From Candidatus Thorarchaeota archaeon (lineage in GTDB: Archaea; Asgardarchaeota; Thorarchaeia; Thorarchaeales; Thorarchaeaceae): a stretch of 64,000 bases of DNA. The notes beneath the pieces were generated by a model. It worked only from the letters and a program-made list of their open reading frames with translations. It searched no databases and was not told the DNA's origin. A program made the position numbers and the translations under genes. Below are positions 15,425 to 33,900 of this stretch, piece after piece (the first letter of the stretch is position 1; each line of letters opens with the position of its first letter). The stretch covers positions 1 to 64,000 of the forward strand of contig JBHLQM010000010.1 of NCBI GenBank assembly GCA_048884785.1, written 5' to 3'.

Positions 15425-15577
15425 TTATTTCCCTTTTTCCGATGATGAACGAAGTTGCTGAATATACCTTAGCCAGACAAGCCTTCTGCTGCACATCCCT
15501 CTAGAGCATCCATAATACGTGTAGTCTTGACATTCAATACAGGGGAACTCAGGTAGGCTCTTCAGAGTTCTAGCCAT
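15425..15577 (-). CDS. Small Cys-rich (putative Zn-binding) protein, last gene of the operon
   Basis: ATG 15577 lies just after the FEN1-like stop; CIEC...C....C. Confidence 0.5.
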   Translation of the reverse strand: MARTLKSLPEFPCIECQDYTYYGCSRGMCSRRLVWLRYIQQLRSSSEKGK

Positions 15578-15581
15578 TTTA

Positions 15582-16574
15582 TCACACCCACTGCTCAAGA
15601 GTTGTTTGCTCCTTTCCAAAATCCTTCCATAATTTCAAAATATGATTTGACTGCCTTTCTGCGTTCTCTTGGCCTATAATAGGTTCCAATAGGTGAATCA
15701 GTTTCGGAACCAAAGGAGGATTCAGATTGGTGATTACTCCATTTAATGAAATATAATTTGCTTCTTCAAACATAGATCTTGCATTGACATAGCCTTCAAT
15801 TTCAGATTTTGAATATCCCTTTGAGCGAAGTAGGCCAACTAAACCACCATATCTCTGAAGAAGTACCACTCCTTTACGAGGGCCGACACCTTTGACTCCA
15901 TCTCTATGAAAATCACACCCACAGATAATTGCCAAATCCCGAAGATAATCCAAGGGCAGATCAACTGATTCCTGGAGATCCTTGAGCGTACATCTCTCAA
16001 TCAATCCGTTACCAAACTGAATGGTTCGAGTAACATGAGGACTTCCGAAGAGAAGAGCATCTAAATCATTTGAAAGAACTGTACCTACTAGACTCTCTCG
16101 ACACATAACCGCCGCCATCATTTCTGCTTCAGATGGCGCAGTGACCTGCGGAACGCCGATTGCATTGCATAGATCCTTGAGATAGTTCACCGCGAAGTAC
16201 CATCGAAGCGCTCTACTCTCCACCAACTGTTCTGCAATTCTAGCGTCATTGATATTGTGGGACTCTGAGAATTGATGATACAATAGGGAAGCTGCTTGAA
16301 GTAAGGAAGGATTTGAGGGTCTCTTCAAATTCTCCGGAGGACCATCGAAAACGAATACTGGTAGTATCTTCATGGCAAGGCTGGATCGAATAGTACTAAA
16401 TGCAAGAGAGATTTGAGCGGTAGGAATTCTCTCAATACTCAGCTTTGCCTGATACTCGAATGCCTGTACTCTTCTTGTCAGGTAATTAGGCGCATCTATT
16501 GCCATGCTACGAGGCCGAAATTCATCATATGGTACCCATCGCCACGGTACGAAATCCCAATTTTTCACACCCAC
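15582..16574 (-). CDS. FEN1/XPG-family 5' structure-specific nuclease with C-terminal PIP box
   Basis: MGVK start (GTG 16574), IDA, PVFVFDG, APSEAE, SNDLDALLFG, CGCDF, H2TH GVKGVGPRKG, C-terminal QTTLEQWV. Confidence 0.9.
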   Translation of the reverse strand: MGVKNWDFVPWRWVPYDEFRPRSMAIDAPNYLTRRVQAFEYQAKLSIERIPTAQISLAFSTIRSSLAMKILPVFVFDGPPENLKRPSNPSLLQAASLLYHQFSESHNINDARIAEQLVESRALRWYFAVNYLKDLCNAIGVPQVTAPSEAEMMAAVMCRESLVGTVLSNDLDALLFGSPHVTRTIQFGNGLIERCTLKDLQESVDLPLDYLRDLAIICGCDFHRDGVKGVGPRKGVVLLQRYGGLVGLLRSKGYSKSEIEGYVNARSMFEEANYISLNGVITNLNPPLVPKLIHLLEPIIGQENAERQSNHILKLWKDFGKEQTTLEQWV

Positions 16575-16586
16575 TAGTGTCACAAC

Positions 16587-17318
16587 CTAGGCTGCCTTCA
16601 AAGAACGAATTCCCCTGTGTCCTAGCCGTACAATAACACCACCGGGATTAGGTATGATAGGTGTCCTCTCCACACATACCTTGACACCCTCATTAATTTC
16701 ACTAAGGGTACTTACACCTATTACCGTATCAACAGCATGTTCAATCACATTCCCCCCAATAGGGCGTGATTCACCTGTTAACCAATTACGAGCTGAATGG
16801 TCAGTCAGCATCATATGTATATTAGTATCAAGCACTACGCCTCTAACGACTTCCAGAGTCCTAAAGAGTTCTCTCTGGCGTTCCTTCGTTCCAGGGGGCC
16901 TACTCATGTTTAGCACGCTAGTTAGACTATCTAGCACAATCACTGCAATACTATCGATCCCTTGGCTTTGGACCACCAAATCTTCAACATCCGTTAGGTT
17001 GAACACAGATCCAATCTTGATTCTATGAAGGCTTTGATTCGAGTCGGTGCCGCACAGAACTCGTCCAAGCTGTGGGCTGAAATTTGATCCAGAATCGAGA
17101 TAGATAGCGTTTCTGTTTGCCATAGCGGCACCGATGACAACTGAATGTGCAATTGCAGTAAGCGGAAAGCGTTCTTCTCCATGAACGACGCTCATCTGAC
17201 CTGGAAGTATGATGCGTCCAATGATATTATCAAGAACTCTGGGTTTCAATTTAAATAAGGGAGCTGAGCTCACTTCGATTTCGTCTAGACTCTTTGATTC
17301 AATTGGCAGCCTGCTCAC
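16587..17318 (-). CDS. Rad51/RadB-like RecA-fold paralog with degenerate Walker A
   Basis: YLDSGSNFSP, VIVLDSLT, ERQRELF and RPIGGNVIEH motifs; the Walker A position reads HGEERFPLT (no GKT). Confidence 0.75.
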   Translation of the reverse strand: MSRLPIESKSLDEIEVSSAPLFKLKPRVLDNIIGRIILPGQMSVVHGEERFPLTAIAHSVVIGAAMANRNAIYLDSGSNFSPQLGRVLCGTDSNQSLHRIKIGSVFNLTDVEDLVVQSQGIDSIAVIVLDSLTSVLNMSRPPGTKERQRELFRTLEVVRGVVLDTNIHMMLTDHSARNWLTGESRPIGGNVIEHAVDTVIGVSTLSEINEGVKVCVERTPIIPNPGGVIVRLGHRGIRSLKAA

Positions 17319-18279
17319 CCCCTGCTTGAGACAGCATTAATGAAATAGTTCCAAGGTCACGTCCCAATATGATGCGTTCGAGGAATTCTGAGGGAATGTC
17401 TTTTGCCTCAATACCCGGAACACTTTCACGTCTAGTAACTGCACGTAATCCATCCGGATGAGGAAATATCATCAAACGCTCTGGTTGCTGTTTAAGCAGA
17501 ACTTCAACTGATTTCTCATTAACCGCCAAAACATAGTCAGACATTTCCAGACCATCATGAACATCGAGAAGAGGCATTAATAGGACAGCCTTCCTCAATA
17601 AAGGTGAAGTCTGTTCAATCTCACTTACACCTGCATCAGCCAAGACCTTTTTGACTTGCTGGCTCAATCCGATGCCTCCCTTCTCTCTTATTATTAATAC
17701 ATCGATGAATTCGAAGTGTGAGAGGATAGCTGGTAGTAGAGGCCTGTCGCGTAATACGGAAACTACTTTGCCAAAAGAACCTCTTGGCAACAGAAGGACA
17801 TCCAGCTTCTGACGTGTTATAAATGCCCACATAGCCAAGTCGTAATCTAGACCAGTTCGAAGCCCATTACTCCTGAAGGCAACAGCCAAATCCGCTGCAA
17901 GGTGCAAGCGTTCTTTGAGCTCAGTTGGATCTCTAACAATCATGCAGCCAAGAACCGAAAAGCCCGCACCCGCCAGTGAGATTAAGAGTCCGTAGGGAAG
18001 AAGTCCGACTAATAGTACGAAGAAAAGATACACCACCGTGCCCCATGCTGTCACATCTAAGAGAGTTTCAATGATAGGAGACTTTGGATTATAGAGTGAC
18101 ACAACTCGCTGCATTACCAGTGTGACTCCCACCACTGCAAGGAAAGGCATTACATTACCCAATCGCATGCTTACAACAACCCAGCTGACAGAGCCTAGGA
18201 TTTGTGATGCCATTATTATAGCCACACCGGCGATTATCCCATAGCTAAATAGACGAAAGAATGTCCCTCTGAACATCAT
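17299..18279 (-). CDS. Membrane protein (4 N-terminal TMs plus soluble domain)
   Basis: Hydrophobic first ~115 aa; overlaps both neighbours. Confidence 0.7.
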   Translation of the reverse strand: MMFRGTFFRLFSYGIIAGVAIIMASQILGSVSWVVVSMRLGNVMPFLAVVGVTLVMQRVVSLYNPKSPIIETLLDVTAWGTVVYLFFVLLVGLLPYGLLISLAGAGFSVLGCMIVRDPTELKERLHLAADLAVAFRSNGLRTGLDYDLAMWAFITRQKLDVLLLPRGSFGKVVSVLRDRPLLPAILSHFEFIDVLIIREKGGIGLSQQVKKVLADAGVSEIEQTSPLLRKAVLLMPLLDVHDGLEMSDYVLAVNEKSVEVLLKQQPERLMIFPHPDGLRAVTRRESVPGIEAKDIPSEFLERIILGRDLGTISLMLSQAGGEQAAN

Positions 18280-18950
18280 GAAGCCTCCATTGATACCCTT
18301 GATATACTGAATGATACCCCACCTGATGAAGAAAGGTGAAGATTGCCAATATGCTCACGGGGTGACCCATCTGCACTTGCAGTATAGATTTGGGAGACCT
18401 GACTTCCAGATCTTCTTTCCAGTATTAGATTAATATCTGCCCAGGAATCCAGCTTCTCATGATATACCGCCCGAACACCCATCTCTGATTCTCTGGTTTC
18501 GCTAATGAGCAAAATGCATAGATTCTTGGTCATACATAATCCGGCTAGAGTAGGCAGAGCTTCTTCAAACAATGACTGACCCCAAAGTATCTTTTCCTTG
18601 CGTGACATATCTAAAACTCTTGTAATCGAATCTATCACTACCATTCCGGTATTATTCCGGAGTCTACGGGCTGTGTCCAATATCGCGGATTTTGTTTCAG
18701 ATGCATTGGCTACTTGAGTGATAGTTAGATTAGATTCTATTCCTCCGTAGTACGCCATATTGTTTTTCAGATGTACAAGGAAACCAATCTTACCATCTGT
18801 AGAGAGCCAGTCAATGTGACGAGTCCTTGACCTGGAAGAAGCCAATGCAGCGGCAAATAGAGTCTTCCCTGACCCAGGACTTCCGGCAACGTGTATTATG
18901 CCGTTTGTATTGGCAAGTGTAGCAATATATTCATCAGTCAGATGTAGCAT
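18276..18950 (-). CDS. Rad51/RadB-like RecA-fold ATPase (core only)
   Basis: Walker A GSPGSGKT, Walker B VVIDSI, LLISE, ADINLILER. ORF extends to 19007; likely ATG 18950. Confidence 0.75.
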   Translation of the reverse strand: MLHLTDEYIATLANTNGIIHVAGSPGSGKTLFAAALASSRSRTRHIDWLSTDGKIGFLVHLKNNMAYYGGIESNLTITQVANASETKSAILDTARRLRNNTGMVVIDSITRVLDMSRKEKILWGQSLFEEALPTLAGLCMTKNLCILLISETRESEMGVRAVYHEKLDSWADINLILERRSGSQVSQIYTASADGSPREHIGNLHLSSSGGVSFSISRVSMEAS

Positions 18951-20583
18951 CCTCCTCAACTTGCCTGTGCTTTGAGAGAGCTTCAGTGCTGGAGTGTGAT
19001 TCAGCAATGCTGGCTAGTACATCCAACGCAGTAGGTTCCACATCGCCCTTCCTGGAATCACCTCGAACGATCTCAGATAGCTCATCCAATTGATTGGCAA
19101 CTGAGATAGTGTCATCCTCAACGCCATCGTACTCTTCAGTTGGGCGGGTTTTCGCCTCTATCTCTGGGATTTCATCTAACACATGTTCTGCGTCAGCAGT
19201 CGAGATTTCTTGGACAAGCCAATCATCTTCCTCTGGATCGTTCTGGATTTCGCCGGCGGGATGCTCACTTATCTCTCTATCAAGAAATTTGAGGTTCTCC
19301 TTCATTGCTCTGGAATTCATCAGATCATCTATCCGATCCTTTACAGAAGGTCTTAGAATTCCTGAATTGTATAGGGTGTCTGTAAGCATAGTTGAGTGCT
19401 TCAGAATTTCATCTTCAGTTAATGGCGATAATATGTGATTGCTAAAAGCGACGTAAGAGATGGCTAGTTCAGATTCGTCCAATTCAGTTCCAAGTGAGTT
19501 GAAGAGTCCTGCAAATTTGGATAGACCATCATCACCCAAGGATTCCACTCTACTTGTAGAATGTCGAACGCATTCATCTAAAACAAGACACGCGGCACTC
19601 ACTGCGCTGTCATAATCGCCTACAGAAATTGAACCGGCAACAGATGCCATGAGAGGCGAAACTACAAAACTCAGATCCTGCTGTGTGCGTAGTTTTTCCT
19701 TGTTTATCTCAATGCTTTGGTTAATTCTATGCCCATCCCCGACTTTGTTAACCTTGATGGTTTCTGTTTGAATAATATCCAGGAATTCATCTAGCCTCCT
19801 CCGAGAACTAAAGAGCAACCATGCTCCAGCCGCAATTCCAAGTATGCTAGCTCCAATTGGCAATACCATGGAACCCTCACCTTGAAACAAAACACCAAGA
19901 ATAGAAACCGCTCCAATAATGGATAGCATGGTGGCAAGAATCCCAAACCACGCCTGTTTCATGCTCTCATCAAGAATATCCCATTTTTCACGTATGACAC
20001 GATTCTGCATCTCCGAGAGAGAAGCCCTCATATCACTGCGCCGTGCCAAGAGAAAATCATCAGCATTTAAAATCCGGCTTGATTCGGTTAGCCAAGTCAA
20101 ATCAACACCGGGGCGAGTTTCACTCACAATGACATAGACAGTTTTGGTTAGATGAATAAGAGAGCCCTTATGATTAGGTCCTGCTCGCAGCATTTGCAGA
20201 CTGATTCGTCCTTTGCTTGTGAGTTTAGTGACTTCTTTGACACTGTCATCCAAATGAACGTCTTTGAGAGCAGACACAATGGTGCGATTGAGAGTTTCTA
20301 GGACGGCTGCTTGCATAGCAATAGTTGCCTTGCCAAATGATGCTCGTCTCAGATCAAGTACATATGCCAAATCCAAATGTACTCCTCTTCTATCGGGGAT
20401 TCCCTCCGTTAGAACACCTAAGACAATGCCATTAGGATACGTTGAAATCCTATGACCAGTTGCACTTAGAGCCCTGACTATGTCGTAGTCTTCTGTACCG
20501 CCAATAGTGGCGGTGCCTTCTCTTTCCAAAGTGTCTTCGTTTTTCTCAACCGTGGAGGTTTCATCAGTTATTACCATCATCAT
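18934..20583 (-). CDS. Membrane protein with two central TM helices and acidic C-terminal tail
   Basis: Two TM segments (WFGILATML...; MVLPIGASIL...), helical C-terminal half; start overlaps the helicase stop. Confidence 0.7.
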   Translation of the reverse strand: MMMVITDETSTVEKNEDTLEREGTATIGGTEDYDIVRALSATGHRISTYPNGIVLGVLTEGIPDRRGVHLDLAYVLDLRRASFGKATIAMQAAVLETLNRTIVSALKDVHLDDSVKEVTKLTSKGRISLQMLRAGPNHKGSLIHLTKTVYVIVSETRPGVDLTWLTESSRILNADDFLLARRSDMRASLSEMQNRVIREKWDILDESMKQAWFGILATMLSIIGAVSILGVLFQGEGSMVLPIGASILGIAAGAWLLFSSRRRLDEFLDIIQTETIKVNKVGDGHRINQSIEINKEKLRTQQDLSFVVSPLMASVAGSISVGDYDSAVSAACLVLDECVRHSTSRVESLGDDGLSKFAGLFNSLGTELDESELAISYVAFSNHILSPLTEDEILKHSTMLTDTLYNSGILRPSVKDRIDDLMNSRAMKENLKFLDREISEHPAGEIQNDPEEDDWLVQEISTADAEHVLDEIPEIEAKTRPTEEYDGVEDDTISVANQLDELSEIVRGDSRKGDVEPTALDVLASIAESHSSTEALSKHRQVEEDATSD

Positions 20584-22759
20584 CACCTGCAAAACGTGTA
20601 TCTAATTCCTCCCAGAGGGATTGCGCCTGGCCAGCCACAAAAGACAGGTTTCCCTCTCTGGCAATTGCAGCAATTGCACTCAACAGCCAACGGGCCTTCT
20701 CCAATAGAGATAGCAGATCTCCTATGGGGAGTCCGAGCTGCTCCGCCATATCCTGTGTATGTATTCGTGTTGTGGCTGCCATTGCAACCATAAAGTCGAA
20801 TTGCTCATCTAAGGCCAAGTTGCCTTCTATCGACACAAGATGCCTTAGCAGAGAGAGTAATGTAGTTGTATCATCAACAAAAGGAATCATTGCAAGTAGC
20901 TCCCTTGCTGTTCGAATGCGAAGGTATAGCCTGCTTACTAATCGCCCCAACCGGGTGACACGAACCTTGCCACCATCTGCCCCTTCAATGAATGCAAGTC
21001 GCCTAAGAACCCCTGACGGACTTGACTCGCTGAGTGACAGTGGTATGACATGATCTGCGTAGATCTTATGCTCAGTAATTGCGGCTATCCCAAGGATGAC
21101 TAAGTGCGAACACAAGACCCCATTTTCATCAAGAGGTCTTCCGCAGGAGCACATTGGACCCTCAATAGCACCGCTTCTCTGGCTCCTCGAGGAAAAGCGG
21201 CAAGTAGCATTATCCCCACCCTTTTGGGTCACAATGCCTCCTATTACAGAATCGTGTGCCTCTCTGATACGAACTGTTCCAAGGACGCCTGCTCTAGCGG
21301 CTCTTAGTGAATCTGATAATGAATGCTTCTCAAGTACTGAAATTGCATCTATGTCCCCGAGATGAACGAGTCTCATCGGTGATCCTGAATTTCTAACTGC
21401 CTGGTGAATAAGAAAGGTATCAGCCAGAAATCCATCTTCAATATCCTGAAGACTTGCTTCACCAAGTAAATCTAGAGCAACTAGGAGCTGTTCCTGCACA
21501 GATTCGGAATCCGAAAGAGCACTCCTTAGGATTTCGTACCTCGGTTCAAGAATCTCCCGACCTGTTGACTCATCATGGTGTGTATAGAAGCATCTTTGTT
21601 TTATCTCGATTGCCTGCCCTTTATTATCTGCTACAATGATTCCAAATCCCTTTGCATCAAGTCCAGGTCGACCTGCTCGCCCCAACATTTGATGTATTTG
21701 ATTTGATGATAGAAGTTCCTTATAATCTACAGGAGATCTAGGGTTCGCAATGATAACACTTCGAGCTGGGAGGTTCATCCCTGATGAAAGCGTAGTTGTT
21801 GCACATATCACTCTAATTTGCCCCTGTCTGAAAAGCCCTTCAATCAACCGTCTGGCAGATATTCCAAGACCTGCATGGTGGTATGCAATTCCTTCGTGAA
21901 GTACCTCTCTCAAATCCTTGGGGAGCGCAACCCCCCAATGTTCCACTGATGATAACTCAGATTGAAGGAATGCCCTCTCATTTGAAGTCAGTTGCTTTCC
22001 GACATGCGGAGCCAGCCTTTTTGCTTCAGCTTCTGCCTCTCTTCTAGTTCTCTGAAATACAATGACTTGTCCATTTTTCTGCACTGTAGTCATGGTATAG
22101 AGCTGCACTGCCTCATCGCGATGAACCTTGGGAACAACTGAGCAGATCAGAGGTATCGGTCTCTCAGAAGATTCTATTAGTTCGCAACCTAGCCATTCAC
22201 TTAGCTGTTCAGGCATTCCGATTGTAGCTGAAAGAGCAACAATCTGCAAATTTTCAACAATCTTGCGAAGACGTATAATGACTGATTCAAGTCGCGCACC
22301 CCTGACGGGTTCTGAGATGGACTGCACCTCATCTATTACAATGGTTCCAATCTCTTCAATCCATTTTACTCGGTGACGAAGAAGAGAGTCTGTCCTTTCA
22401 TAGGTAGTAACGAGTATATCATATTCAGAGAGGTCTTCACTTTCCGAAAAACAGTCACCAGTACTCAGTCCTACTCGAATATTCTTTGGCTCATACCTGC
22501 TCTTTAGGACTTCATAGATTTGACTGGCTAAGGCACGTAATGGGACAATGTATAGCCCTCTCTTTCCTGCAGAGATTGACCTTAGAAGGGCCATCTCTCC
22601 GATGAGTGTTTTTCCGGAACCTGTTGGGCTGGAGATAAGAATACTCTGCCCCTCCAGGAGACCTTTGTCCACAGCGTCTCTTTGAATACCTCTGGGTTGC
22701 AATCCAATGTGATCAAGAATCTTATGCACCCGAGCAGAAATATCCATATAGCTTGTCAT
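20564..22759 (-). CDS. Ski2-like/Hel308-type SF2 helicase with inserted SWIM zinc finger
   Basis: SPTGSGKT, VPLRALA, DEVQ, SAT, HHAGL, GMNLPA, QMLGRAGR; CSC-x10-CSH SWIM motif precedes TRLGRLVSRLYL. Confidence 0.88.
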   Translation of the reverse strand: MTSYMDISARVHKILDHIGLQPRGIQRDAVDKGLLEGQSILISSPTGSGKTLIGEMALLRSISAGKRGLYIVPLRALASQIYEVLKSRYEPKNIRVGLSTGDCFSESEDLSEYDILVTTYERTDSLLRHRVKWIEEIGTIVIDEVQSISEPVRGARLESVIIRLRKIVENLQIVALSATIGMPEQLSEWLGCELIESSERPIPLICSVVPKVHRDEAVQLYTMTTVQKNGQVIVFQRTRREAEAEAKRLAPHVGKQLTSNERAFLQSELSSVEHWGVALPKDLREVLHEGIAYHHAGLGISARRLIEGLFRQGQIRVICATTTLSSGMNLPARSVIIANPRSPVDYKELLSSNQIHQMLGRAGRPGLDAKGFGIIVADNKGQAIEIKQRCFYTHHDESTGREILEPRYEILRSALSDSESVQEQLLVALDLLGEASLQDIEDGFLADTFLIHQAVRNSGSPMRLVHLGDIDAISVLEKHSLSDSLRAARAGVLGTVRIREAHDSVIGGIVTQKGGDNATCRFSSRSQRSGAIEGPMCSCGRPLDENGVLCSHLVILGIAAITEHKIYADHVIPLSLSESSPSGVLRRLAFIEGADGGKVRVTRLGRLVSRLYLRIRTARELLAMIPFVDDTTTLLSLLRHLVSIEGNLALDEQFDFMVAMAATTRIHTQDMAEQLGLPIGDLLSLLEKARWLLSAIAAIAREGNLSFVAGQAQSLWEELDTRFAGDDDGNN

Positions 22760-25071
22760 TTTCCTGCACTCACCTCTCGATCTTTCTGTCTGAGAGCCAT
22801 AGTACCTTTCATGGTTAGGCGGTAATTCTTGTATGAAACACCACTATGTTGTTCGTGACCTTCAAGTATGAAACTAGCGTCCTTCAGACGGATTAGAATA
22901 CCTTCAACATCACCTTCTCCGCCACTAGCCGATATGAATCGTCTGACAGCTTCCTCTGTCAATGGCTCATACCTCTCTAGAAGTCTGAGAACTCTTAGGT
23001 TCAAATCAGAGGCTTCAGTACCATCATTGGTTGAAGGTATAGCCTGTTCCTTTTGAGAAGAAATACGAGAAATTCGCGACCTGCTCTCTTCAGGAGATAT
23101 TGGTCTTAGCTCTGGTACATCCGCCAATCGGAATGGTTGAGCAGTTTCCAGTTCATTATGAACAAGCAATGCAACGCCATCCTCCATTGTCCGAAGAAAA
23201 GAGGATTCTCGGGCCGACCATCGCGCTTTGCTATGTAATCCAGTACCTATTACGCTCAGAGCAAGTCGTGATGATACTACGGCGATATCTTTCTCATCCC
23301 TCAGTCTGAATGATATGCAGGAGCTCAATAGATTCTTGACTCCTGATGATAGCATATGAGGCTGGTCGATGCTTATAATAACGGAACTCACTTTGGAGAG
23401 ATTGCGAATAAGAGAATCAGTCCAAAGTGCCCTGCGTGAATACTCTGTATTTGATGTTCTAAGATTATCAGGATCATCAATGATAATTACTAAATCCCTG
23501 TCAGGTTTGCGTCCGGCTAGTTTCATGAGCATAAGATCAAAGGCAAAGAAGTCAAGCGGTGCAGAACCCAAGGACATAGAAACCACGCAAATTGGTATCG
23601 ACCCCAATTTTTCGACTGAAACGGTTTGGGTTCCATAGAAAGCTCTTGCTCCAGATCCTTGGTGTAATCTCCTTAGAGCTTCAATACCAAGTAGTGATGC
23701 CTTGCTCGTGGAATTTAATTGAACAGCTGAGTCCGTCGCCTGGAGATCGGCATCATTCTCAATCCTCACATCTGCAACTGTTCGGTTTCCCAACGCAACG
23801 GCTCTTCCTAGGGCGAGTTCAAAGTCGGCTGCACTCGTGAGCGATGCGCCACTCAGACTTTCCAACGCTCTCATTAGCTGTGGAACAAATTCAGTTCGCG
23901 GGACATTATCGGAGTCGACAGGATTCAGAACCAGGTCCTTGCCCAAAGTCATTCCTATTGCGCCATCATGAAGACTTGCTAATTGAAGTGCATCATGGTG
24001 TGAGCTGAGTACAAGAACGCGCTTTCCTGAACTAAGTAGTCGTGCTGAAAGAAGCGATAGCAAATCCAGTCGATTTTGCCAACTTCCCCCGCAAACAAGA
24101 ACACCATCAGATATATCTTGAAACGATAGTCCGGTAATTGGGCCTTCTTGGAGGGTGTCAGGATTCAAGACCTTTCCGAGAGGTAGGTCACTTTCTCTGG
24201 TTCGGATGTTTATTACGAATTGCCCAGGGACATTAGTTCCAACCTCTGACGACAATTCAGACCTTAATTGAACTAGCCATTCGGATAGCTCAACTCCGGT
24301 AGCGAAGTACAATGGCAAACCGTGTCCGCCTTTCATGCTAGCGAGCTTCTCATGCAAACGAGCTGCGTCGATGCGCTTCCATCCTTTTGCAGGAATCGCT
24401 CCACGGACTGCAGATTCATGAAAGCGAACATCATTGGCATCTCTTACTAATCCAATAATAGAAACATTAACGCCCCATAGACCGGAGCGATACTCCATAT
24501 AGGTATGCAACTCGTCTCCGGAAAGTCCTTTGAGATATGTTTCAATCGAGGATGCAAGGTTGCGATTCTCTAAAATCCTTCCCGGATTCATTGATTCCAT
24601 CGATACTGTGAGAGTGAAACCATCAGAAGTTGGCAGAGCTCTGACAAGAGAAGCAATAGTACCTTGAAGCTTTGCTCCTGCGCTCCTCAATTCTAGCCCT
24701 GTAGCAGAATACGGAATTTCACCAAGTCGTCGCAAATGACTATTGTCTCCAACGAGCGAAGGAAAGATGTAGAGCTGTTCCTTCCATGCACTCTGTGGAT
24801 TGACATATTCGTGATTTGATAGATATCTTGGAATAAGCCAAAGCATTACAGACAGGAGAATGGTCAAAGCAATTACAGCGATAGGAAATGAAAGGACTGC
24901 AATGAAAGAGAGAATAACTATGGCAATAGACGATGTCCACGAATCTCGAATCTCTCTACTTGTCCATCGAACTTCACTGCTACTCGCTGGCTTTAAAGTG
25001 GATTCCTTCATCTCAGAGAGTGGATCTTGAGGAGGCTGGGAGCCCATTACAAACCCTTTACCCTTAGCCAA
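22756..25071 (-). CDS. Membrane-anchored HerA/FtsK/VirB4-like protein with degenerate ATPase motifs and C-terminal winged helix
   Basis: N-terminal TMs; VLVCGGSWQNR (Walker A site), GKRVLVL, LGKDLVLNP, LVIIIDDPDNL (Walker B site), DQPHMLS...SFRL, LRTMEDGVALL, YRLTMKG. ORF extends to 25158; likely start TTG 25071 or ATG 25047. Confidence 0.65.
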   Translation of the reverse strand: MAKGKGFVMGSQPPQDPLSEMKESTLKPASSSEVRWTSREIRDSWTSSIAIVILSFIAVLSFPIAVIALTILLSVMLWLIPRYLSNHEYVNPQSAWKEQLYIFPSLVGDNSHLRRLGEIPYSATGLELRSAGAKLQGTIASLVRALPTSDGFTLTVSMESMNPGRILENRNLASSIETYLKGLSGDELHTYMEYRSGLWGVNVSIIGLVRDANDVRFHESAVRGAIPAKGWKRIDAARLHEKLASMKGGHGLPLYFATGVELSEWLVQLRSELSSEVGTNVPGQFVINIRTRESDLPLGKVLNPDTLQEGPITGLSFQDISDGVLVCGGSWQNRLDLLSLLSARLLSSGKRVLVLSSHHDALQLASLHDGAIGMTLGKDLVLNPVDSDNVPRTEFVPQLMRALESLSGASLTSAADFELALGRAVALGNRTVADVRIENDADLQATDSAVQLNSTSKASLLGIEALRRLHQGSGARAFYGTQTVSVEKLGSIPICVVSMSLGSAPLDFFAFDLMLMKLAGRKPDRDLVIIIDDPDNLRTSNTEYSRRALWTDSLIRNLSKVSSVIISIDQPHMLSSGVKNLLSSCISFRLRDEKDIAVVSSRLALSVIGTGLHSKARWSARESSFLRTMEDGVALLVHNELETAQPFRLADVPELRPISPEESRSRISRISSQKEQAIPSTNDGTEASDLNLRVLRLLERYEPLTEEAVRRFISASGGEGDVEGILIRLKDASFILEGHEQHSGVSYKNYRLTMKGTMALRQKDREVSAGK

Positions 25072-25351
25072 TGGAACCACCTTCTGCAATCTGATAATGC
25101 TGGGAGAGAGCCTGAAGCATTCTTCGGAATCTTTCAGAGTACTCTTCCTTGCCTTCAAAGAGGAGCATTCGACCTATGATAAGCACTTCAGGGAGATCTC
25201 CTGGAGGTGGATTTCCATGAGCCCATAGTTTTGGATACTCGGTCAATCGAGTCCAAACATATCCATGACCAATCTCGAGGTTGTTCATTAGTTCCTCTAT
25301 CTTCAGATTCCCAGGAATTGCGAGCATGGAAGTGCCACTAAGCCTTTGCAT
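25064..25351 (-). CDS. Hypothetical protein (95 aa), operon member
   Basis: Coupled to both neighbours with RBS-like GAGGT/GGTGG. Confidence 0.6.
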   Translation of the reverse strand: MQRLSGTSMLAIPGNLKIEELMNNLEIGHGYVWTRLTEYPKLWAHGNPPPGDLPEVLIIGRMLLFEGKEEYSERFRRMLQALSQHYQIAEGGSIG

Positions 25352-25937
25352 CGACCTCTATACCTCCTCTTCGAATAAGCTGAATATCAGGAACATCGGC
25401 TGTAGAAATGGGAGTGTGGGGATAGGCGGCCCGCATTGCACTCTCAAGGACGAACGCATCCTCAAGCACTTTGTCAGCCAAATCCTCAACTCTGTGAATC
25501 CCATTTGGTAGTCGAAGACTACGCCTTGATACAATGAATCCAACTCTAGTGACTGAGTTGCCCAAAGGTCTGCATAGCACAAATTCAAGCCTCCCTCCTG
25601 GTTCATTATCGTACCTGGTTGCCATTGCTGAGAACACCTTTTTCGCGGAGTGGCTCAGGTCGATTCCCAGGGGAACACTTCGAATAAGACGCAATGAACA
25701 AACCTCAACATTCCATCCTCTGATAATTCCCAAAACGCCCCGATTCCCATCCCAAAGAAGATTTGGAGTTTTGTCAATTCTTCTTACACTGAATAGCAGC
25801 AATAGAAGAGAAAGCATGCCGGCAATCGCAATTATGAGGTGATTCATATTCTGCTGAATTGATAGGCTCATGCCCCACGCAGCAGCGATAGCAGCCACCA
25901 AAATCCAATGCACGGATGAGGACTCCTTGGAAATCAT
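25338..25937 (-). CDS. Membrane protein (2 N-terminal TMs plus alpha/beta domain)
   Basis: Two hydrophobic helices; ATGA overlap with the upstream gene. Confidence 0.7.
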   Translation of the reverse strand: MISKESSSVHWILVAAIAAAWGMSLSIQQNMNHLIIAIAGMLSLLLLLFSVRRIDKTPNLLWDGNRGVLGIIRGWNVEVCSLRLIRSVPLGIDLSHSAKKVFSAMATRYDNEPGGRLEFVLCRPLGNSVTRVGFIVSRRSLRLPNGIHRVEDLADKVLEDAFVLESAMRAAYPHTPISTADVPDIQLIRRGGIEVDAKA

Positions 25938-26128
25938 ACGACCTCCCTCTCAAGAATACTTAGACATGGAGAGATATCTTCAACAGGCTCCGCATCGATG
26001 GCACACCAAACCGTAAATAGCATCCAAGAAATTGCTGAAACACCCAAAGCTGTTGCAGAAACTAGTAAACCAATTCCAACCGCGAGCCATGCTAGCATTG
26101 CAGCGAGAAATAGAGCTACAGTTTTCAT
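25934..26128 (-). CDS. Small 2-TM hydrophobic protein (64 aa)
   Basis: First 45 aa almost entirely hydrophobic; coupled by ATGA overlap. Confidence 0.6.
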   Translation of the reverse strand: MKTVALFLAAMLAWLAVGIGLLVSATALGVSAISWMLFTVWCAIDAEPVEDISPCLSILEREVV

Positions 26129-26135
26129 ATTCAGT

Positions 26136-28100
26136 TTAACCCACTCTCCTTAAATCAAGAAACATTGTGATTGCCTTCTTCATTTCCTCAACACTATGAT
26201 ATGGCCAAAGATCAGAAACGATGTCATCTCCAAAGATTGAGATATGTCGTTCAAATCTATGGTCAAGAAGTACGACCACTCCCCAGTCTTCTGGAGACCT
26301 TCGTAGGCGCCCAACAAGTTGAACCACTTTGCGGACAGAAGGAATAACTGAGGAATAATAATATCCAGAGCCTTCTCCAAAACGTCGCTCATACCAGTCC
26401 TGCAATGCCCTTTGATAGCTGGTAGGCGGACTGAATGGTATCCCCACTCCGATAATCAGATCTACAAGCGACTGACCATCAATGACCAAGTCTACTCCCT
26501 CACTGAATTTTCCGCCATAGACGAGGAATACAGCCTTTGGACCTTGGTGCACTTGGTCCTGCAAATCTTCTATCCTTGCATCTCGATTCTCGACGATTCT
26601 ATCTCTATATCCACAATCAATATTGTAGCTTAGAACCTGGTCCATCACATCATAACTTGGAAAAGCCACGAGAGCCGATTTCTCTGCAGGCATCGTGACA
26701 AGAGCAGCTTCAATGCGCTTGCTCAGGCCGCGCCATAGCTCAGGTCCTCTTACTGAATACTTCGTAGAAACTTCACGATCCAAAAGAACAAGTCGTGAGT
26801 TCCTTGGATATGGACTTCCCAAATCTTCTGTCAATGAGCCTCTGATACCCATAAGACTCGCATAGAGATTTGTAGGCCTGAACGTGCCAGACATAAGCAA
26901 AGCAGCTCTTGCACTGCGGAGGATTGGGGCAATCAGGCCTGCAGCATTTAAGGGGCGTATTCGGAGAATGCCATCGACCAAACGAACTTCACTTGCCCAA
27001 GAGGGATTGAGCTCAGCTGTGACATGCCAATCATCACTATCAGATGCTCGGAGTCCGGCGAATAGAAAATCAACCAATCTATCCAAAGGTGTTTCCGTTG
27101 GAACAGATTCATCACCATCAAGGATTCGTGTCTGGTCCATAAGAACGTGAATGAGTTCAGGATCTACAAACCTAGGAAGGATTTGCCATCGGTCAATCTC
27201 GAGTTCACCCTTTTTCCTTCCAATTTTGTCAAGCGAAACCATCAAGGATTCCCAGAGGAAATCTATCACTTCGGAAATCCAGGATACCCCTGTTTCCTTC
27301 TTGACAGATGCCTTATTGTCCCTGAGCCACTGCAAATCCTCCCCGCTGAGACTAGCCGCCTCGGAAGAAAGAACATGTTCTGGAAGATTGTGCGCCTCAT
27401 CAACCAGTAGATCTGCATCCAAGAGACTATAACTCAAACTGGACAGAAGGGCGTTTCGAACACGTTCCTTGAAGAAGTAGGAATAAGGTCCAATTATGAC
27501 TCTGCTTTGTCTTGCTGACCATCTGAGAACTTCGTAGGGGCAAACACCTGACTCCTCAGCACTATGCTCAGCTGTTTCTCGAGCAACAACACCAGAAGAA
27601 AGCAATTCATTAACTAGTGATCTGGCGGGCTCACGTATCACTGGTGTCCCTTCATCTCCTTGACGTCTGTAGAATTGCCAATAGTGAGTGCACCGCCCAG
27701 TTCTGATCATCATGGCGCAACCGCGCATGAAACCCATTGCTGAATCAGTATCCATCTCGTGACGTATAGGGCAGATGTGCTTTCTAGAAACCATACTTGT
27801 AGTCGTGATTTGGTTTCCATGCCCAAGCGCATTTCTACGAAGTAGTTCAAGTTCTTCTTCAAAAACTCTTGACTGTGAGTGAGTTCTGGTAAGAATAAAC
27901 AGTCTCGAAGTAGAATCATCCGCTCTTACCGCCAAATATCCTGCTAGAGAGGCAATTGTTTTGCCGACACCGCATTCAGCAGATAGCATACCCACTATTC
28001 CCCGCGCATATGTTTCAGCGGCTATTGTTACGGCCCTATCCTGTTGTGGACGTGGCGTGTAGGGGAACCATGCAAGTGGATTCGCTATGCTTTCTCCCAA
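26136..28100 (-). CDS. XPD/Rad3/DinG-family 4Fe-4S SF2 DNA helicase
   Basis: FPYTPRPQQ Q-motif, AECGVGKT, TRTHSQ, four FeS Cys (HICP, GC, RC, CPYE), DEAHNL, SGT, GGKFSEGVD, QLVGRLRR. Confidence 0.92.
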   Translation of the reverse strand: MGESIANPLAWFPYTPRPQQDRAVTIAAETYARGIVGMLSAECGVGKTIASLAGYLAVRADDSTSRLFILTRTHSQSRVFEEELELLRRNALGHGNQITTTSMVSRKHICPIRHEMDTDSAMGFMRGCAMMIRTGRCTHYWQFYRRQGDEGTPVIREPARSLVNELLSSGVVARETAEHSAEESGVCPYEVLRWSARQSRVIIGPYSYFFKERVRNALLSSLSYSLLDADLLVDEAHNLPEHVLSSEAASLSGEDLQWLRDNKASVKKETGVSWISEVIDFLWESLMVSLDKIGRKKGELEIDRWQILPRFVDPELIHVLMDQTRILDGDESVPTETPLDRLVDFLFAGLRASDSDDWHVTAELNPSWASEVRLVDGILRIRPLNAAGLIAPILRSARAALLMSGTFRPTNLYASLMGIRGSLTEDLGSPYPRNSRLVLLDREVSTKYSVRGPELWRGLSKRIEAALVTMPAEKSALVAFPSYDVMDQVLSYNIDCGYRDRIVENRDARIEDLQDQVHQGPKAVFLVYGGKFSEGVDLVIDGQSLVDLIIGVGIPFSPPTSYQRALQDWYERRFGEGSGYYYSSVIPSVRKVVQLVGRLRRSPEDWGVVVLLDHRFERHISIFGDDIVSDLWPYHSVEEMKKAITMFLDLRRVG

Positions 28101-28702
28101 TTCGTTTCCTCCACCTGCAACATCGACTCTGCTGTGTGTATTCTAAATCTGATTGAGAAGTACCGATACATTAGGTCATGGAATCTCTGCACATTAGCTG
28201 AGGAGTCAAAGCCCTTTGTGTTCGAAGCCATTCTCTCGACAATCTCGGGACTGAATCCACGTTTCATAGCTATTGACCAAAAAGTCGCTTCGACCTCTTT
28301 TGCGGTACTCAACACAAAATCGCAGATGTTCTCCACCAATTCTCGTAGAAATCTGACAGCCTCTCGCGGCAACGCTGGTATCTGGGAGGCATAAGTCGAT
28401 GTAGGGACATAGAGTTGAAGACCTTCATCGCTATCCAAGTATACCTTACTTGGAACACCTCGCGTACCTCTCATGGTCTCCAGGAAAGATAGTATCCTTG
28501 GGAGCTGTGGGAGTATCGGTTTCTCCAAATCCCTCCAGTCTATTGACATGAGTACGAATAGTTCAGGATCTGGTTCTATTTCTGCCATCCTTATTACAGT
28601 GATTCGAGTTGGGGTATGACGCATGATTAGATTCACGAGTGCAATTGAATTCCGATTTGGCACGCCATGAGGAATTTGCATATGCGAGGCACTTGTTGTC
28701 AT
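28085..28702 (-). CDS. Hypothetical protein, operon member
   Basis: 205-aa ORF overlapping both neighbours. Confidence 0.7.
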   Translation of the reverse strand: MTTSASHMQIPHGVPNRNSIALVNLIMRHTPTRITVIRMAEIEPDPELFVLMSIDWRDLEKPILPQLPRILSFLETMRGTRGVPSKVYLDSDEGLQLYVPTSTYASQIPALPREAVRFLRELVENICDFVLSTAKEVEATFWSIAMKRGFSPEIVERMASNTKGFDSSANVQRFHDLMYRYFSIRFRIHTAESMLQVEETNWEKA

Positions 28703-29145
28703 CCCAATGAACCTCCCTCAATAATGAATAGATTACCAGAATGCTCAACCAACGCACCTTCACGTTTCAGAACATCCACAAAATGGCGGGCTCGTTCTAA
28801 GTCAATTCCAGCTTCTGAACATTCGCGAAGTACTTCCGTGTAGGAGGCAGGCTGCCCCCTATTGATTTCAATTAGTGCCTCAATTATATTCAACACGCGC
28901 TTCTTTAAACCCAAGCCACGTGAAGCCCCTGTCTTTCTTTCATCCAATCTGGAAGTCAATACGAGATCCGTGAGTATGTCCTTTGCTTCATCAATAGTAG
29001 CAGCGTACAGAGTACCTTTTTCATGGAGAATTAGTCCATTACATAGGCTGCATCGGGCGTCATCCTCTTCGTTGTTTACTGCAGCAAAGCCAGAGTTTCT
29101 GCATCTTCTGCATTGATAGATTCTGAACATACCCCGGGCTTTCAA
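28699..29145 (-). CDS. Zn-ribbon plus C-terminal winged-helix protein (DUF1922/DUF5817-like)
   Basis: CRRC...CSLC; the C-terminus VLNIIEAL...AGIDLERARHFVDVLKREG resembles the MCM C-terminal winged helix. Confidence 0.6.
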   Translation of the reverse strand: MKARGMFRIYQCRRCRNSGFAAVNNEEDDARCSLCNGLILHEKGTLYAATIDEAKDILTDLVLTSRLDERKTGASRGLGLKKRVLNIIEALIEINRGQPASYTEVLRECSEAGIDLERARHFVDVLKREGALVEHSGNLFIIEGGSLG

Positions 29146-30218
29146 ACAGCTTCAACCTCCACTTCTTCGGAATCATCATCAGAACCCTCTTCGACGTCAA
29201 CTTTGGCTTCACCAAATCCAGGTCTACCTGATTTCTCAAGGACTTCAAGAACTCGAGAGCCAACATCTTTCTTCTCCTTTGCATCCTCATAGAAGCCGCC
29301 CCAACCAATTTTCAGCGACACGTCAAACTCTGGCACGCCAGCATTATCTTGAAGGGTAATTCGTCTCTCGTCATCCTTGATTCGTCTCACATAGAATCTG
29401 TAGTCGCTGGCATGACTCAGTACATGACCTCCAACAGGTGCATTTGGATTTCCGCCATAGGAGGAAATATTGGCCATCACCTGGTTTGTATAGGCAAATA
29501 CAGTGCCTGTCGCAGCTGCCGTTCGCCGCATCTGATTCAGGATATTGTTCATATCCTGCTGCCTTAGTTTCAATTGTTCAAGCCCAGTATATTCTGCTCT
29601 AAAGAGACCTGTGAAAGAATCAAGTACAACAAATTTGTAGTTCTGCTCTGCACACATCTGCGGAATGCTTTCAAAAATCTCGGTGATTTGGCCTGAGAGA
29701 ATGATCTCTGCCCTTCCGATATTCCCCAAAGTAACATCAGGATCCAACCCGAAACGGATGGCATTTGCCCGTATTACCCACGGTTTGAATGAAGACTCAC
29801 TGTCAAGCCAAAGAACTCTGCCTCCAAAGCCGCCCTCCTCTACAGGAAGTTGAGCTCTCACCGCAAGAAATGAACACCATTGCGTTTTACCTCCTCTGGC
29901 AGGACCATAGAACTCTATAATAGAGCCCTCCTCAATCCCACCGAGAAGCGCCTCATCAAGTTTGGAGATGCCACTCTTCAAACGAGGTTTGGTCTCCATC
30001 TCATGCTCCACATCAAGTCCGGATTTAAAGCCGAACATCCCTGTGAGCATCCGCGCATTCTTAATCAACTTGGAAATTGTACCTTCTCCAAGCTTGGTCT
30101 TTTCCTGAAGCTCAACTGGATTCTGAACTGCAAGCAGCTCTGCTGTTGTGACGAAGACCTCTCTGAGCTTCTTTGCTGCTGCAGGTCCTACACCACTTAC
30201 TGCCTCAAGATCAGTCAA
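29142..30218 (-). CDS. radA: Divergent full-length RadA/Rad51-family recombinase
   Basis: HhH N-terminal domain (GVGPAAAKKL), GFKSG linker, LDEALLGGIE, GPARGGKTQ, VVLDSFTGLFRAEY, RQQ, TNQV, PVGGHVLSHA. Probably a paralog of the housekeeping radA. Confidence 0.88.
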   Translation of the reverse strand: MTDLEAVSGVGPAAAKKLREVFVTTAELLAVQNPVELQEKTKLGEGTISKLIKNARMLTGMFGFKSGLDVEHEMETKPRLKSGISKLDEALLGGIEEGSIIEFYGPARGGKTQWCSFLAVRAQLPVEEGGFGGRVLWLDSESSFKPWVIRANAIRFGLDPDVTLGNIGRAEIILSGQITEIFESIPQMCAEQNYKFVVLDSFTGLFRAEYTGLEQLKLRQQDMNNILNQMRRTAAATGTVFAYTNQVMANISSYGGNPNAPVGGHVLSHASDYRFYVRRIKDDERRITLQDNAGVPEFDVSLKIGWGGFYEDAKEKKDVGSRVLEVLEKSGRPGFGEAKVDVEEGSDDDSEEVEVEAV

Positions 30219-30669
30219 CTTTGAGAACCTCCTTCACCTGAGTTTCCACGGGGCCCCTAAGGGGAACCAACCGCATGAATCTGGATATCTCAGAAGGAGG
30301 AATCACAATCATTCCGCCAAGGAACACTGTCCGTACTCCAGCCAATTGCAGCTGTACAGCTGATGCATCTGGCGATGAGATTGGAAACAGTATACCCTGT
30401 TCAGTCACTCTCCCTGTGATGCTGATATACCCGCCAAGAGAGTCAAGAACAGAACCGTCTTCTGGAGTCTGTCCAGGCGCAATTGGTGTGATATCCAACA
30501 GCATGTCCGCAGTGTCCAAGACATCTGATAGGAACGGAGCCCAGAGATATTCTGGCTCCCAATACCTAGGCAGCCCAAGTCCAGCAATTGCTCCTGCCAA
30601 CCATGTGGTATCAGTAATGTCAGACACAACAGGGAGTATCCGTCCATTCAGGTCAATAGTGTAACTCAT
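30211..30669 (-). CDS. Hypothetical protein, operon member
   Basis: 152 aa; ATGA overlap upstream, carries the RBS for the radA-like gene. Confidence 0.7.
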   Translation of the reverse strand: MSYTIDLNGRILPVVSDITDTTWLAGAIAGLGLPRYWEPEYLWAPFLSDVLDTADMLLDITPIAPGQTPEDGSVLDSLGGYISITGRVTEQGILFPISSPDASAVQLQLAGVRTVFLGGMIVIPPSEISRFMRLVPLRGPVETQVKEVLKVD

Positions 30670-31391
30670 ACTACTTCCTCCTGTGCTATAATATTGAATG
30701 TTCCAACCACTTCATTCTGGGGTTGCATATCGTCGAGCCAGTTGAGAATTTCCTGAACGAGATGCTTCTCAAACTGCGTACGGCTCAGAACAGATTGCAA
30801 TAGCGCCTTTGATGCTAGCCGGACCCTATCGATAGCCCTTGAGCGTGTTTCGTAATCAAGCGGTCTATACCAATCCATGGTCACATAGCCACTCTCGCCA
30901 GCAAGAAACTCTCGCCAGTCAATATTGAATGGAAGGTCCTTCTCAAGTATGTTCAGAAGAACACGAGTCCATGTAGCCCATCGGTCCATGAATCTCCAGA
31001 TGTTTCTTCCCAGTTCCTCAATACTTGAGCCTTCGAAGATGAGAATGATACGTGTTGCGTCGTCACGTTCTATCGCCGATGCCGAAATCATCCGATTCTG
31101 CTGCTCAACAAGTAGTGCAATTGCTGGTATGAGTCCAGGAATGTCACATTGTCGATATGATCCATTTTGACCTTCTTTGTATCGAGGGAAGGGAGATAGA
31201 ATCTCACTTCGCAATCCTGCGATCACAACCATAGACCCATCCTGTTGAAGGGTTGCCCTGGCAATGTGACGATCACTACTCTCAAACATCATTTGCATGT
31301 ACAATGTCACGTCAATGTCGTGCTTGTCCTTAACACTCTCATATTGACGTGCCAAACCTGCCTCGAAGTTCCTGCATGACATCAAATTCAC
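30666..31391 (-). CDS. Hypothetical protein, first gene of the operon
   Basis: 241-aa ORF downstream of the TATA/repeat region. Confidence 0.7.
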   Translation of the reverse strand: MNLMSCRNFEAGLARQYESVKDKHDIDVTLYMQMMFESSDRHIARATLQQDGSMVVIAGLRSEILSPFPRYKEGQNGSYRQCDIPGLIPAIALLVEQQNRMISASAIERDDATRIILIFEGSSIEELGRNIWRFMDRWATWTRVLLNILEKDLPFNIDWREFLAGESGYVTMDWYRPLDYETRSRAIDRVRLASKALLQSVLSRTQFEKHLVQEILNWLDDMQPQNEVVGTFNIIAQEEVV

Positions 31392-31448: not shown

Positions 31449-31488
31449 AGCTATATGAACTCAAATGAGCTATATGAACTCAAATGAG
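31449..31488. repeat. Perfect tandem 19-bp direct repeat (operator-like) upstream of the operon
   Basis: (AGCTATATGAACTCAAATG)x2 + AG; contains ACTCA-AA-TGAG(C/T) dyads. Confidence 0.85.
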
Positions 31489-31507: not shown

Positions 31508-31520
31508 GTTTTATATATCC
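31508..31520 (-). promoter_or_regulatory. Putative TATA box of the operon
   Basis: Minus strand GGATATATAAAAC, about 25 nt upstream of the tandem repeat. Confidence 0.45.
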
Positions 31521-32258: not shown

Positions 32259-32385
32259 CGTCTTCTGGCGTCCATGATTCAAGTTATCTCTTTTCATTAA
32301 TGATAATATTGCTAACAAGAGCAAGAATATTATATGTGATATCTCTGTAATCTCTAATAGGAGTTGCTCACTATTCAGCAACGAG

Positions 32386-32613: not shown

Positions 32614-32653
32614 AAAGGAGATTGGCCGCGTACTGCGGCCATCCTTTTCCGTA

Positions 32654-33886: not shown

Positions 33887-33900
33887 TATTGTCCACCTCA

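Follow-up and report, generated by a model that had tools for sequence, protein, structure and literature searches.

Why would an archaeon keep a second set of recombination genes interleaved with genes for membrane proteins? The question is raised by an operon of Candidatus Thorarchaeota archaeon, located in positions 1 to 64,000 of contig JBHLQM010000010.1 (assembly GCA_048884785.1), a 64,000-nucleotide stretch that we refer to as the window. The operon occupies positions 15425-31391 of the minus strand and comprises 17 open reading frames (ORFs), which we have labelled g01 (30666-31391) to g17 (15425-15619). It encodes a second recombination set, catalytically intact as judged by its conserved motifs, together with membrane-anchored proteins around an ATP-dead VirB4-fold protein, g10. 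Such a combination suggests a machine, not described so far, that acts on DNA at the cell membrane, and we found no description of the operon in the literature searched.

A previous reading, made from the sequence only, had counted 16 genes. The same-strand packing that it described stands and the number does not, the difference coming from the handling of two 64-residue ORFs, g07 and g17. Its inventory was recovered in full: a RadA, two core-only paralogs, an XPD-type and a Hel308-type helicase, a FEN1-like nuclease, a zinc protein, and a VirB4/HerA-like protein with four more membrane proteins. The five ATGA overlaps that it listed (30666-9, 28699-702, 25934-7, 22756-9 and 18276-9) correspond exactly to ORF ends and ATG starts. 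The remaining junctions of the operon are overlaps or gaps of at most 16 nucleotides, given the likely starts of g10 at 25071 and of g13 at 18950; gene callers likewise give 771 residues for g10. The operon is translationally coupled.

The recombination genes and their housekeeping counterparts

The genes of the recombination set, listed together with g04, which lies among them, are the following:
29142-30218, minus strand: g03, second full-length RadA (HhH N-domain and ATPase core; Pfam Rad51 and HHH_5)
28699-29145, minus strand: g04, zinc ribbon and C-terminal winged helix, with an invariant CxxC..CxxC motif
26136-28100, minus strand: g06, XPD-type superfamily 2 helicase with a four-cysteine iron-sulphur (FeS) cluster (Pfam DEAD_2 and Helicase_C_2)
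20564-22759, minus strand: g11, Hel308-type Ski2-like helicase with a CxC-x9-10-CxH (SWIM-like) insert (Pfam DEAD and Helicase_C)
18276-18950, minus strand: g13, core-only RecA-fold paralog, RadB-like, with intact Walker A/B (from hhalign)
16587-17318, minus strand: g15, core-only RecA-fold paralog with Walker A lost (Pfam Rad51, 31 bits)
15582-16583, minus strand: g16, FEN1/XPG-family nuclease with a C-terminal PCNA-interacting-protein (PIP)-like QxTLExW (Pfam XPG_N and XPG_I)

Regarding the recombinase, g03 matched the Pfam Rad51 model at about 180 bits (cut-off 22) and HHH_5 at 26.6 bits, just under the cut-off of 27. Fifteen orthologs keep both Walker motifs (A and B) along with a polymerisation-type motif, F-x-[ST]-[GA], and the ATPase core, the HhH domain and the polymerisation motif identify g03 as a RadA/Rad51 protein. 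When all operon families were compared with each other using hhalign, the sole relationship was the one joining g03, g13 and g15, with probabilities of 96.9% for g13 and g03, 93.3% for g13 and g15, and 99% for g15 and g03. The orthologs of g13, which gave at most weak AAA_25/KaiC P-loop matches in Pfam, keep GxxGxGKT and hhhhD. The P-loop of g15 is lost in every ortholog, being replaced by HG.ER.PLT in 12 of those compared.

Walker A, DEAH and the four FeS cysteines of g06 are kept in 14 orthologs, which identifies it as an XPD/Rad3 helicase. Residues 15-393 of g11, its helicase core, matched Hel308 structures in the Protein Data Bank (PDB) at 253-261 bits (2va8, 261 bits), while residues 400-731, where the winged helix, ratchet and HhH domain 5 of a Hel308 would be expected, gave no match when judged by sequence alone. 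Orthologs of g11 keep its Walker A, its DE[VI]Q and its Cys/His motif; the CxC..CxH motif is present in 13 Thorarchaeota orthologs and in 7 of 8 remote Asgard orthologs, and the Pfam SWIM model did not match g11 at E <= 0.01. A 756-residue Ski2-like helicase on contig C9 (L042:197-2467, minus strand), 25% identical to g11, also has a CxC..CxH SWIM-like motif. The nuclease g16 scored over the cut-off with both XPG_I (60 bits) and XPG_N (31 bits), and its acidic metal-ligand residues and QxTLExW tail are kept in 11 orthologs, which identifies it as a FEN1/XPG nuclease; the PIP-like tail would imply tethering of the nuclease to PCNA. Cysteines C12, C15, C32 and C35 of g04 are invariant across orthologs, and its profile weakly resembles the C-terminal winged helix of MCM (2m45, E 0.012). 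With catalytic motifs kept in 11-15 orthologs, the P-loop of g15 being the one lost, the set is firmly predicted to be catalytically intact.

These genes are not the only copies in the genome. The source assembly (3.6 Mb, 91% complete) carries a housekeeping RadA on contig C5, which scored 323 bits with the Pfam Rad51 model and is 39% identical to g03. Better-scoring counterparts were also present for the other enzymes: a housekeeping FEN1 on contig C30 (30% identical to g16), a housekeeping XPD on contig C49 (23% identical to g06) and Ski2/Hel308-like genes on contigs C1 and C9 (25-30% identical to g11). The proposal of a dedicated second gene set is borne out by these separate radA, fen1, xpd and Hel308-like genes on other contigs. 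On contig C49 (L001:6184-10230), two same-strand ORFs come after the XPD gene, one of the Rad51 family with 308 residues and one of 197 residues, a smaller pairing of XPD and RecA-fold genes that is separate from the operon. We considered this locus as a paralogous operon and rejected it: the XPD gene lies beside a Rad51-family ORF only.

Divergence of the operon set runs at roughly double the rate seen for the housekeeping set. Over the same five genome pairs, identities were 55-73% for g03 and 84-90% for the housekeeping RadA, and 44-53% for g16 and 67-72% for the housekeeping FEN1. The toolkit had been described as eukaryote-like, a quality that turned out not to be special to the operon. 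We gauged closeness to eukaryotic Rad51 by bit scores against solved structures in the PDB, as a proxy for phylogeny: the housekeeping RadA scored 391 bits with Pyrococcus RadA, 300 with human RAD51 and 257 with DMC1, whereas g03 scored 183, 160 and 130 bits, respectively. Human RAD51 is nearer to the housekeeping RadA than to g03; by these sequence scores, the operon RadA is more divergent, not more eukaryote-like.

The VirB4-like protein g10 and the membrane proteins around it

Hydropathy placed transmembrane (TM) segments in g07, g08, g10, g12 and g14:
22756-25071, minus strand: g10, 771 residues, with a TM hairpin, VirB4-like N- and C-domains, a degenerate P-loop and a C-terminal winged helix
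25934-26128, minus strand: g07, 64-residue hydrophobic two-helix ORF with a TM segment, lineage-specific
25338-25937, minus strand: g08, N-terminal TM hairpin and a 150-residue domain, of no known family
18934-20592, minus strand: g12, 552 residues, with an alpha/beta N-domain, a TM hairpin, a helical domain and an acidic tail
17299-18279, minus strand: g14, about four N-terminal TM helices and a 210-residue C-terminal domain, of no known family

The longest ORF of g10 has 800 residues and starts at 25158. Pfam gave no match for g10; its DUF87/HerA model recognised five canonical HerA-type genes elsewhere in the genome and left g10 unmatched, and its VirB4 N-domain model, CagE_TrbE_VirB, had no match anywhere in the genome. 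We built an AlphaFold2 (AF2) model of g10 (predicted local distance difference test score, pLDDT, 71) and compared it by VIA structure search. The best match was the VirB4 C-domain 4ag6, with a Z of 28.4 and a root-mean-square deviation of 2.7 over 323 residues, followed by DndH-C (Z 25.5), HerA (4d2i, Z 25.5) and TrwB (Z 21). Full-length TrwK/VirB4 aligned over model residues 131-695, and therefore the N-domain of g10 is VirB4-like too. The winged helix lies at model residues 714-800.

The P-loop position of g10 reads CGGSxxxR, with no GK[ST], in 14 of 14 Thorarchaeota sequences and in 15 remote Asgard homologs. GK[ST] is also missing from nearly all of the ~85 library representatives that can be aligned at this position, the whole family amounting, in 1.84 billion proteins, to 197 representatives with E <= 0.001; an ATP-competent GTTGSGKT was seen at the weak margin of the match list only. 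The sequence-only reading had likened g10 to CedB, and a CedB-like motor role is ruled out by the missing Walker A lysine, which is lacking in Thorarchaeota, in remote Asgard homologs and in nearly all alignable library relatives. According to these results, g10 defines an ancient pseudo-ATPase branch of the VirB4/HerA superfamily. A g10 fragment with 49% identity was also found on a 2.1-kb contig (L106, MAXT01000013.1) in a Desulfuromonadales metagenome-assembled genome; this contig is probably a misbinned piece of Thorarchaeota DNA.

Among the other membrane proteins, g07 is patchy: 5 of 13 loci have a counterpart, and g06 abuts g08 in the rest. The TM pairs of g08, g10 and g12 are joined by loops of 0-12 residues with little or no Lys/Arg and have flanks that are usually basic, and the roughly four TM helices of g14 are separated by short loops. 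A short ES-A-x-R-x-A-x-P motif is common to g08 and the N-part of g10, and it was not significant by hhalign. The AF2 model of g12 had a pLDDT of 76 overall and above 85 over residues 40-430. Foldseek returned no match to it at E <= 0.001, and a wide VIA search, in which the N-domain was barely tested, gave generic helical hairpins (Z ~10, below the trusted level) and weak HEPN-like bundles (Z 9).

Conservation, neighbours and relatives in other Asgard families

We found g10 in 24 of 41 relatives including the source genome (18 of the 24 family genomes) and, in a wider sample, in 53 of 85 family genomes; many of the genomes with no match are incomplete. The order g01-g16 recurs, to the extent that contigs allow, in 14 loci of the family. 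In the family genomes that share it, at least 15 besides the source genome, protein identity is 35-86%, and because the complete order recurs at such identities the operon lies far beyond chance. Clustering in relatives, which had been put forward as a test of the operon, proved strict, the membrane genes keeping company with those for helicases and recombinases. The pattern, over at least 16 genera, is that of one chromosomal place. A genome from another family of the order (G025) has a reduced set consisting of g03, g04, g05, g06, g10, g11 and a g12-like gene.

The operon is cellular and vertically inherited, and is not a mobile element. The view that it does not look like an ordinary mobile element is upheld by the conserved flanks, by the lack of any tyrosine integrase in the assembly, and by a pattern-limited scan of the IMG/VR viral contigs, which found no g10 relatives. 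The Pfam results for the operon and neighbouring proteins contained no relaxase and no replication protein.

Profile searches detected g10-like genes in several other Asgard families. Outside Thorarchaeota such genes often come in two pieces, a TM N-part of ~290 residues and a C-part of ~530, or are fused, with 1250-1400 residues. Their companions within ~10 kb are a g11-like helicase, RadA, RadB-like and FEN1-like proteins and further membrane proteins; most remote loci carry part of this core set only, and one genome (G148) has a compact same-strand operon. The linked g11-like helicases of remote loci scored 400-508 bits, as against 238 for the best own-genome paralog. In G149, G148, G030 and G160 the linked RadA was the lower-scoring one, with 170-252 versus 333-351 bits for the Pfam model. 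The core of the operon is older than Thorarchaeota.

In a RadA tree, where the partial housekeeping ORF of G017 was left out and the outgroup branches g13 and g15 are very long, the housekeeping Asgard RadAs form one clade (support 97/98), and all linked RadAs, g03 among them, fall outside it. A single grouping of all non-housekeeping RadAs was not rejected (approximately unbiased test, p = 0.21), and one ancient RadA duplication is possible. Two RadA clades have been reported in Heimdall-, Njord-, Gerd- and, less robustly, Lokiarchaea by Matsuo et al. 2025 (PMC12722695); neither Thorarchaeota nor operons or gene neighbourhoods come up in the text of that paper. The second RadAs described here, which may or may not belong to that second clade, fall outside a well-supported housekeeping clade.

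Three remote loci from two Asgard families (L027, L037 and L028, in G149, G151 and G130, respectively) have a homologous protein of 880-1016 residues and a multi-TM protein of 150-175 residues directly upstream of the split VirB4-like gene. In the larger one, a hydrophobic N-terminal segment is accompanied by several TM segments.

Around the Thorarchaeota operon, the following neighbours may be associated with it:
13796-15424, plus strand: convergent 542-residue soluble protein of no known family, possibly associated (no Pfam/PADLOC match)
12946-13554, minus strand: 202-residue four-TM protein, downstream neighbour, possibly associated (no Pfam match)
5019-12830, minus strand: 2603-residue surface protein, possibly associated, with a signal peptide, Ig-like and alpha-2-macroglobulin-like domains and a C-terminal TM anchor

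The 542-residue gene adjoins g16 in at least 9 relatives. The four-TM protein was present in 5 of 6 downstream stretches of Thorarchaeota relatives, and in all six when a match in G017 beside the operon (L019) is counted, and always adjoins the giant protein. The latter, which matched Pfam Big_1, Big_3_5, Filamin, MG2 and the Prenyltrans toroid, lies downstream of the operon in 6 of 6 Thorarchaeota relatives checked and in G025, where the g12-like gene is followed directly by homologs of both proteins. BLAST found no similarity between these two proteins and the membrane proteins that lie beside the core in other Asgard families. Upstream, a GH3-family gene (36838-38418) is separated from the operon by a leucine-rich-repeat protein, an S-adenosylmethionine methyltransferase and a beta-lactamase-fold protein (35469-36647 and 31611-33967, both minus strand). 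These genes look like a local insertion, because the GH3 gene is the direct upstream neighbour of the operon in several relatives. A gene of the archaeal Nre family, which is associated with DNA repair, lies 12 kb downstream of the operon (1639-2880, plus strand; Nre_N, 133 bits), a neighbour that is kept in two close relatives. The window contains no tRNA.

The remaining ORFs of the operon, and the sequences preceding it, are as follows:
30666-31391, minus strand: g01, 241 residues, soluble, of no known family (no Pfam/PADLOC match; orthologs in 14 loci)
30211-30669, minus strand: g02, 152 residues, acidic, of no known family (no Pfam match; orthologs in 11 loci)
28085-28702, minus strand: g05, 205 residues, of no known family (also in G025)
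25064-25351, minus strand: g09, 95 residues, of no known family (orthologs in 13 loci)
15425-15619, minus strand: g17, 64-residue Cys-rich ORF, weakly conserved (five Cys; in 3 loci only; paralog on contig C1)
31451-31517, minus strand: candidate promoter region, with a TATA-like box, TATATAAAA, at 31509-31517
31451-31488: perfect 19-nucleotide tandem repeat, two copies of CTCATTTGAGTTCATATAG, ~25 nucleotides downstream of TATATAAAA and before g01

Profile searches of the PDB with g01, g05 and g08 gave nothing meaningful. The operon defines protein families without known relatives in g01, g02, g05, g08, g09, g12 and g14. Regarding its transcription, the box and the repeat before g01 are candidates only for a regulatory role, which is unproven: no 8-mer motif was common to the regions upstream of g01 in 14 relatives examined, mostly of other genera, and the tandem repeat was absent from that position in the same 14. 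A scan for sigma-70-type promoters and terminators, which is unsuited to archaea, gave background levels only.

Possible roles at the membrane: DNA exchange, repair or defence

In order to contextualize the operon, we compared it with known systems. The Sulfolobales Ced system and the Thermoproteales Ted system mediate chromosomal DNA import by domesticated type IV secretion; VirB4-like ATPases are a signature of type IV secretion systems (T4SS) and of Ced/Ted, and Ted loci also contain HerA and Rad50 (PMC9905601). The Thorarchaeota operon resembles Ced/Ted in being chromosomal and vertically kept, in encoding small membrane proteins close to a membrane-associated protein of the VirB4 fold, and in its link to homologous recombination. 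It differs from them in that it belongs to the phylum Asgard and contains a complete set of recombinase, mediators, helicases and flap nuclease, in that its VirB4-like protein has no Walker A lysine and is not an ATP-competent ATPase, and in that neither a conserved VirB2/CedA1-like pilin nor a 7-TM VirB6/CedA-like channel was recognised in the operon. With the VirB4 of bacterial T4SS, g10 shares the structural match of both domains and the N-terminal TM hairpin, whereas a degenerate P-loop (GG[ST]xxxR) and an additional winged helix at the C-terminus set it apart, and no VirB6, VirB8 or VirB10 partner was recognised. The HerA-superfamily fold and the operon link to recombination recall the HerA-NurA/Mre11-Rad50 operon; unlike the latter, the Thorarchaeota operon has no NurA, Mre11 or Rad50 (no operon protein gave a NurA-like Pfam match), and g10 is ATP-dead and membrane-anchored.

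The operon is also similar to the eukaryotic network of RAD51, its paralogs, HELQ and the SWIM proteins (Shu, SWS1) in uniting a recombinase, active and inactive RecA-fold paralogs, a Hel308/HELQ-type helicase and a CxC..CxH zinc motif as one unit. It is dissimilar in that g03 has no specific sequence affinity to that network and in that the zinc motif lies inside the g11 helicase, not in a separate protein. We know of no eukaryotic counterpart to the membrane anchoring. In bacterial competence (ComEC, ComFA, DprA, RadA/ComM), a helicase draws single-stranded DNA in and passes it to the recombinase via mediators; the likeness to this machinery is by analogy only, no homology search to ComEC, ComFA or DprA having been made.

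Our leading reading, held tentatively and at somewhat less than an even chance, is that the operon couples the import or exchange of DNA at the envelope to recombination in a Ced/Ted-like manner. In its favour are the VirB4 fold of g10, the example of Ced/Ted, and the surface and polytopic proteins that recur as neighbours; DNA uptake or exchange is offered as an unproven hypothesis and not as a finding. A second homologous-recombination set would be assembled on the cytoplasmic face of the membrane, where g10 would act as a TM-anchored ring or dock that holds DNA without hydrolysing ATP. The motor would be supplied by the two helicases, the XPD-type g06 working 5'-3' and the Hel308-type g11 working 3'-5'. 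The filament-forming RadA2 (g03) and the active and dead RadB-like mediators would pair the held single strand with the chromosome, and the flap nuclease g16 and PCNA-dependent synthesis would complete the joint. The outer parts may come from two neighbours of the operon, the four-TM protein and the giant surface protein.

Several observations weigh against this proposal. Having no Walker A lysine, g10 cannot power transport as CedB or VirB4 do. There is no conserved pilin in the operon, the sole candidate being g07 with its counterpart in 5 of 13 loci (the rest of the genome was not searched), and no VirB6/CedA-like channel of 6-7 TM segments was recognised, operon proteins reaching ~4 TM segments at most, with g14 and the 202-residue protein judged by hydropathy only. 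The positive-inside rule, applied to simple hydropathy, suggests that essentially all the mass of g08, g10, g12 and g14 is cytoplasmic. The adjacency of the giant protein may be mere general synteny among relatives. Finally, the PIP-like tail of g16 and the XPD-type g06 are no less consistent with repair of the cell's own DNA during replication than with import.

Most of these observations lend weight to a close rival, which we rate only a little lower: that DNA of the cell's own chromosome, when it is broken, cross-linked or stalled in replication, is brought to a membrane platform made of the g10 ring and g08, g12 and g14. There the dedicated set of RadA2, mediators, XPD, Hel308 and FEN1 would repair it by a specialised form of recombination, the candidates being repair of interstrand crosslinks, fork repair and gene conversion between the copies of the genome. 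The large cytoplasmic domains predicted from hydropathy, the lack of a conserved pilin and of a recognised channel, and the PIP-like tail kept on g16, which would imply PCNA, all suit this explanation, and an ATP-dead g10 is likelier to be a scaffold than a pump. Besides, excision, crosslink and fork repair are among the roles of helicases of the XPD and Hel308/HELQ types, and BCDX2, a complex of RAD51 paralogs, is bound by HELQ (PMC13623763). However, ordinary repair is already covered by the housekeeping set, the best structural match of the anchor is a secretion ATPase and not a repair protein, and in several Asgard lineages the core has surface and polytopic membrane proteins as recurrent neighbours. 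To our knowledge, membrane-anchored recombination repair has no precedent in archaea.

Defence seems to us quite doubtful. Viral or conjugative DNA coming in would be recognised by a membrane-anchored sensor or decoy, the dead VirB4-like protein, and then be destroyed by the helicases and the flap nuclease; HerA-fold, Ski2/Hel308-like and DinG/XPD-like proteins do occur in defence systems (HamB matched at up to 139 bits and type IV DinG at 261 bits), and the operon genes evolve faster than their housekeeping paralogs. Yet PADLOC gave no match at the level of a system, only generic DinG (g06) and HamB (g11) helicase models, and no HamA, SIR2, DUF4297 or other effector partner accompanies them. 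The fixed chromosomal place and the vertical pattern across at least 16 genera are not those of a variable island, and we know of no place in defence systems for a strand-exchange recombinase with two mediators. The reading that we find least probable is that an ancient conjugative or integrative element was domesticated and left this remnant, in which the DNA-processing module was kept and export was lost or altered. This would account for the VirB4 fold and for an N-terminal TM hairpin reminiscent of the VirB3-VirB4 fusions found in bacterial T4SS, and Ced/Ted provide a precedent for domestication (PMC9905601). Against it stand the lack of a relaxase, a replication protein and a tyrosine integrase in the region and of relatives in viral contigs. 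The g10 family is small and nearly all its alignable P-loops are ATP-dead; therefore, any capture predates the diversification across the Asgard lineages sampled.

A wider proposal, which we regard as improbable, is that the operon represents an ancient, Asgard-wide, membrane-anchored recombination machine for programmed exchange of genomes between cells, a parasexual cycle, in the archaea closest to eukaryotes. It would have a VirB4-derived, ATP-dead ring to dock DNA and a dedicated set of RadA2, the Rad51-paralog-like pair, Hel308-SWIM and FEN1 to recombine it, and would foreshadow, in a prokaryote, a second and specialised pathway of recombination next to the general one. If import or exchange is true, domesticated T4SS-like transfer of the Ced/Ted kind would reach the Asgards, in a form that is driven by helicases rather than by VirB4. 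If the membrane serves the repair of the cell's own DNA, this would be a new principle for prokaryotic recombination. The operon is a concrete and testable candidate, whether for a route dedicated to gene exchange or for one specialised in repair.

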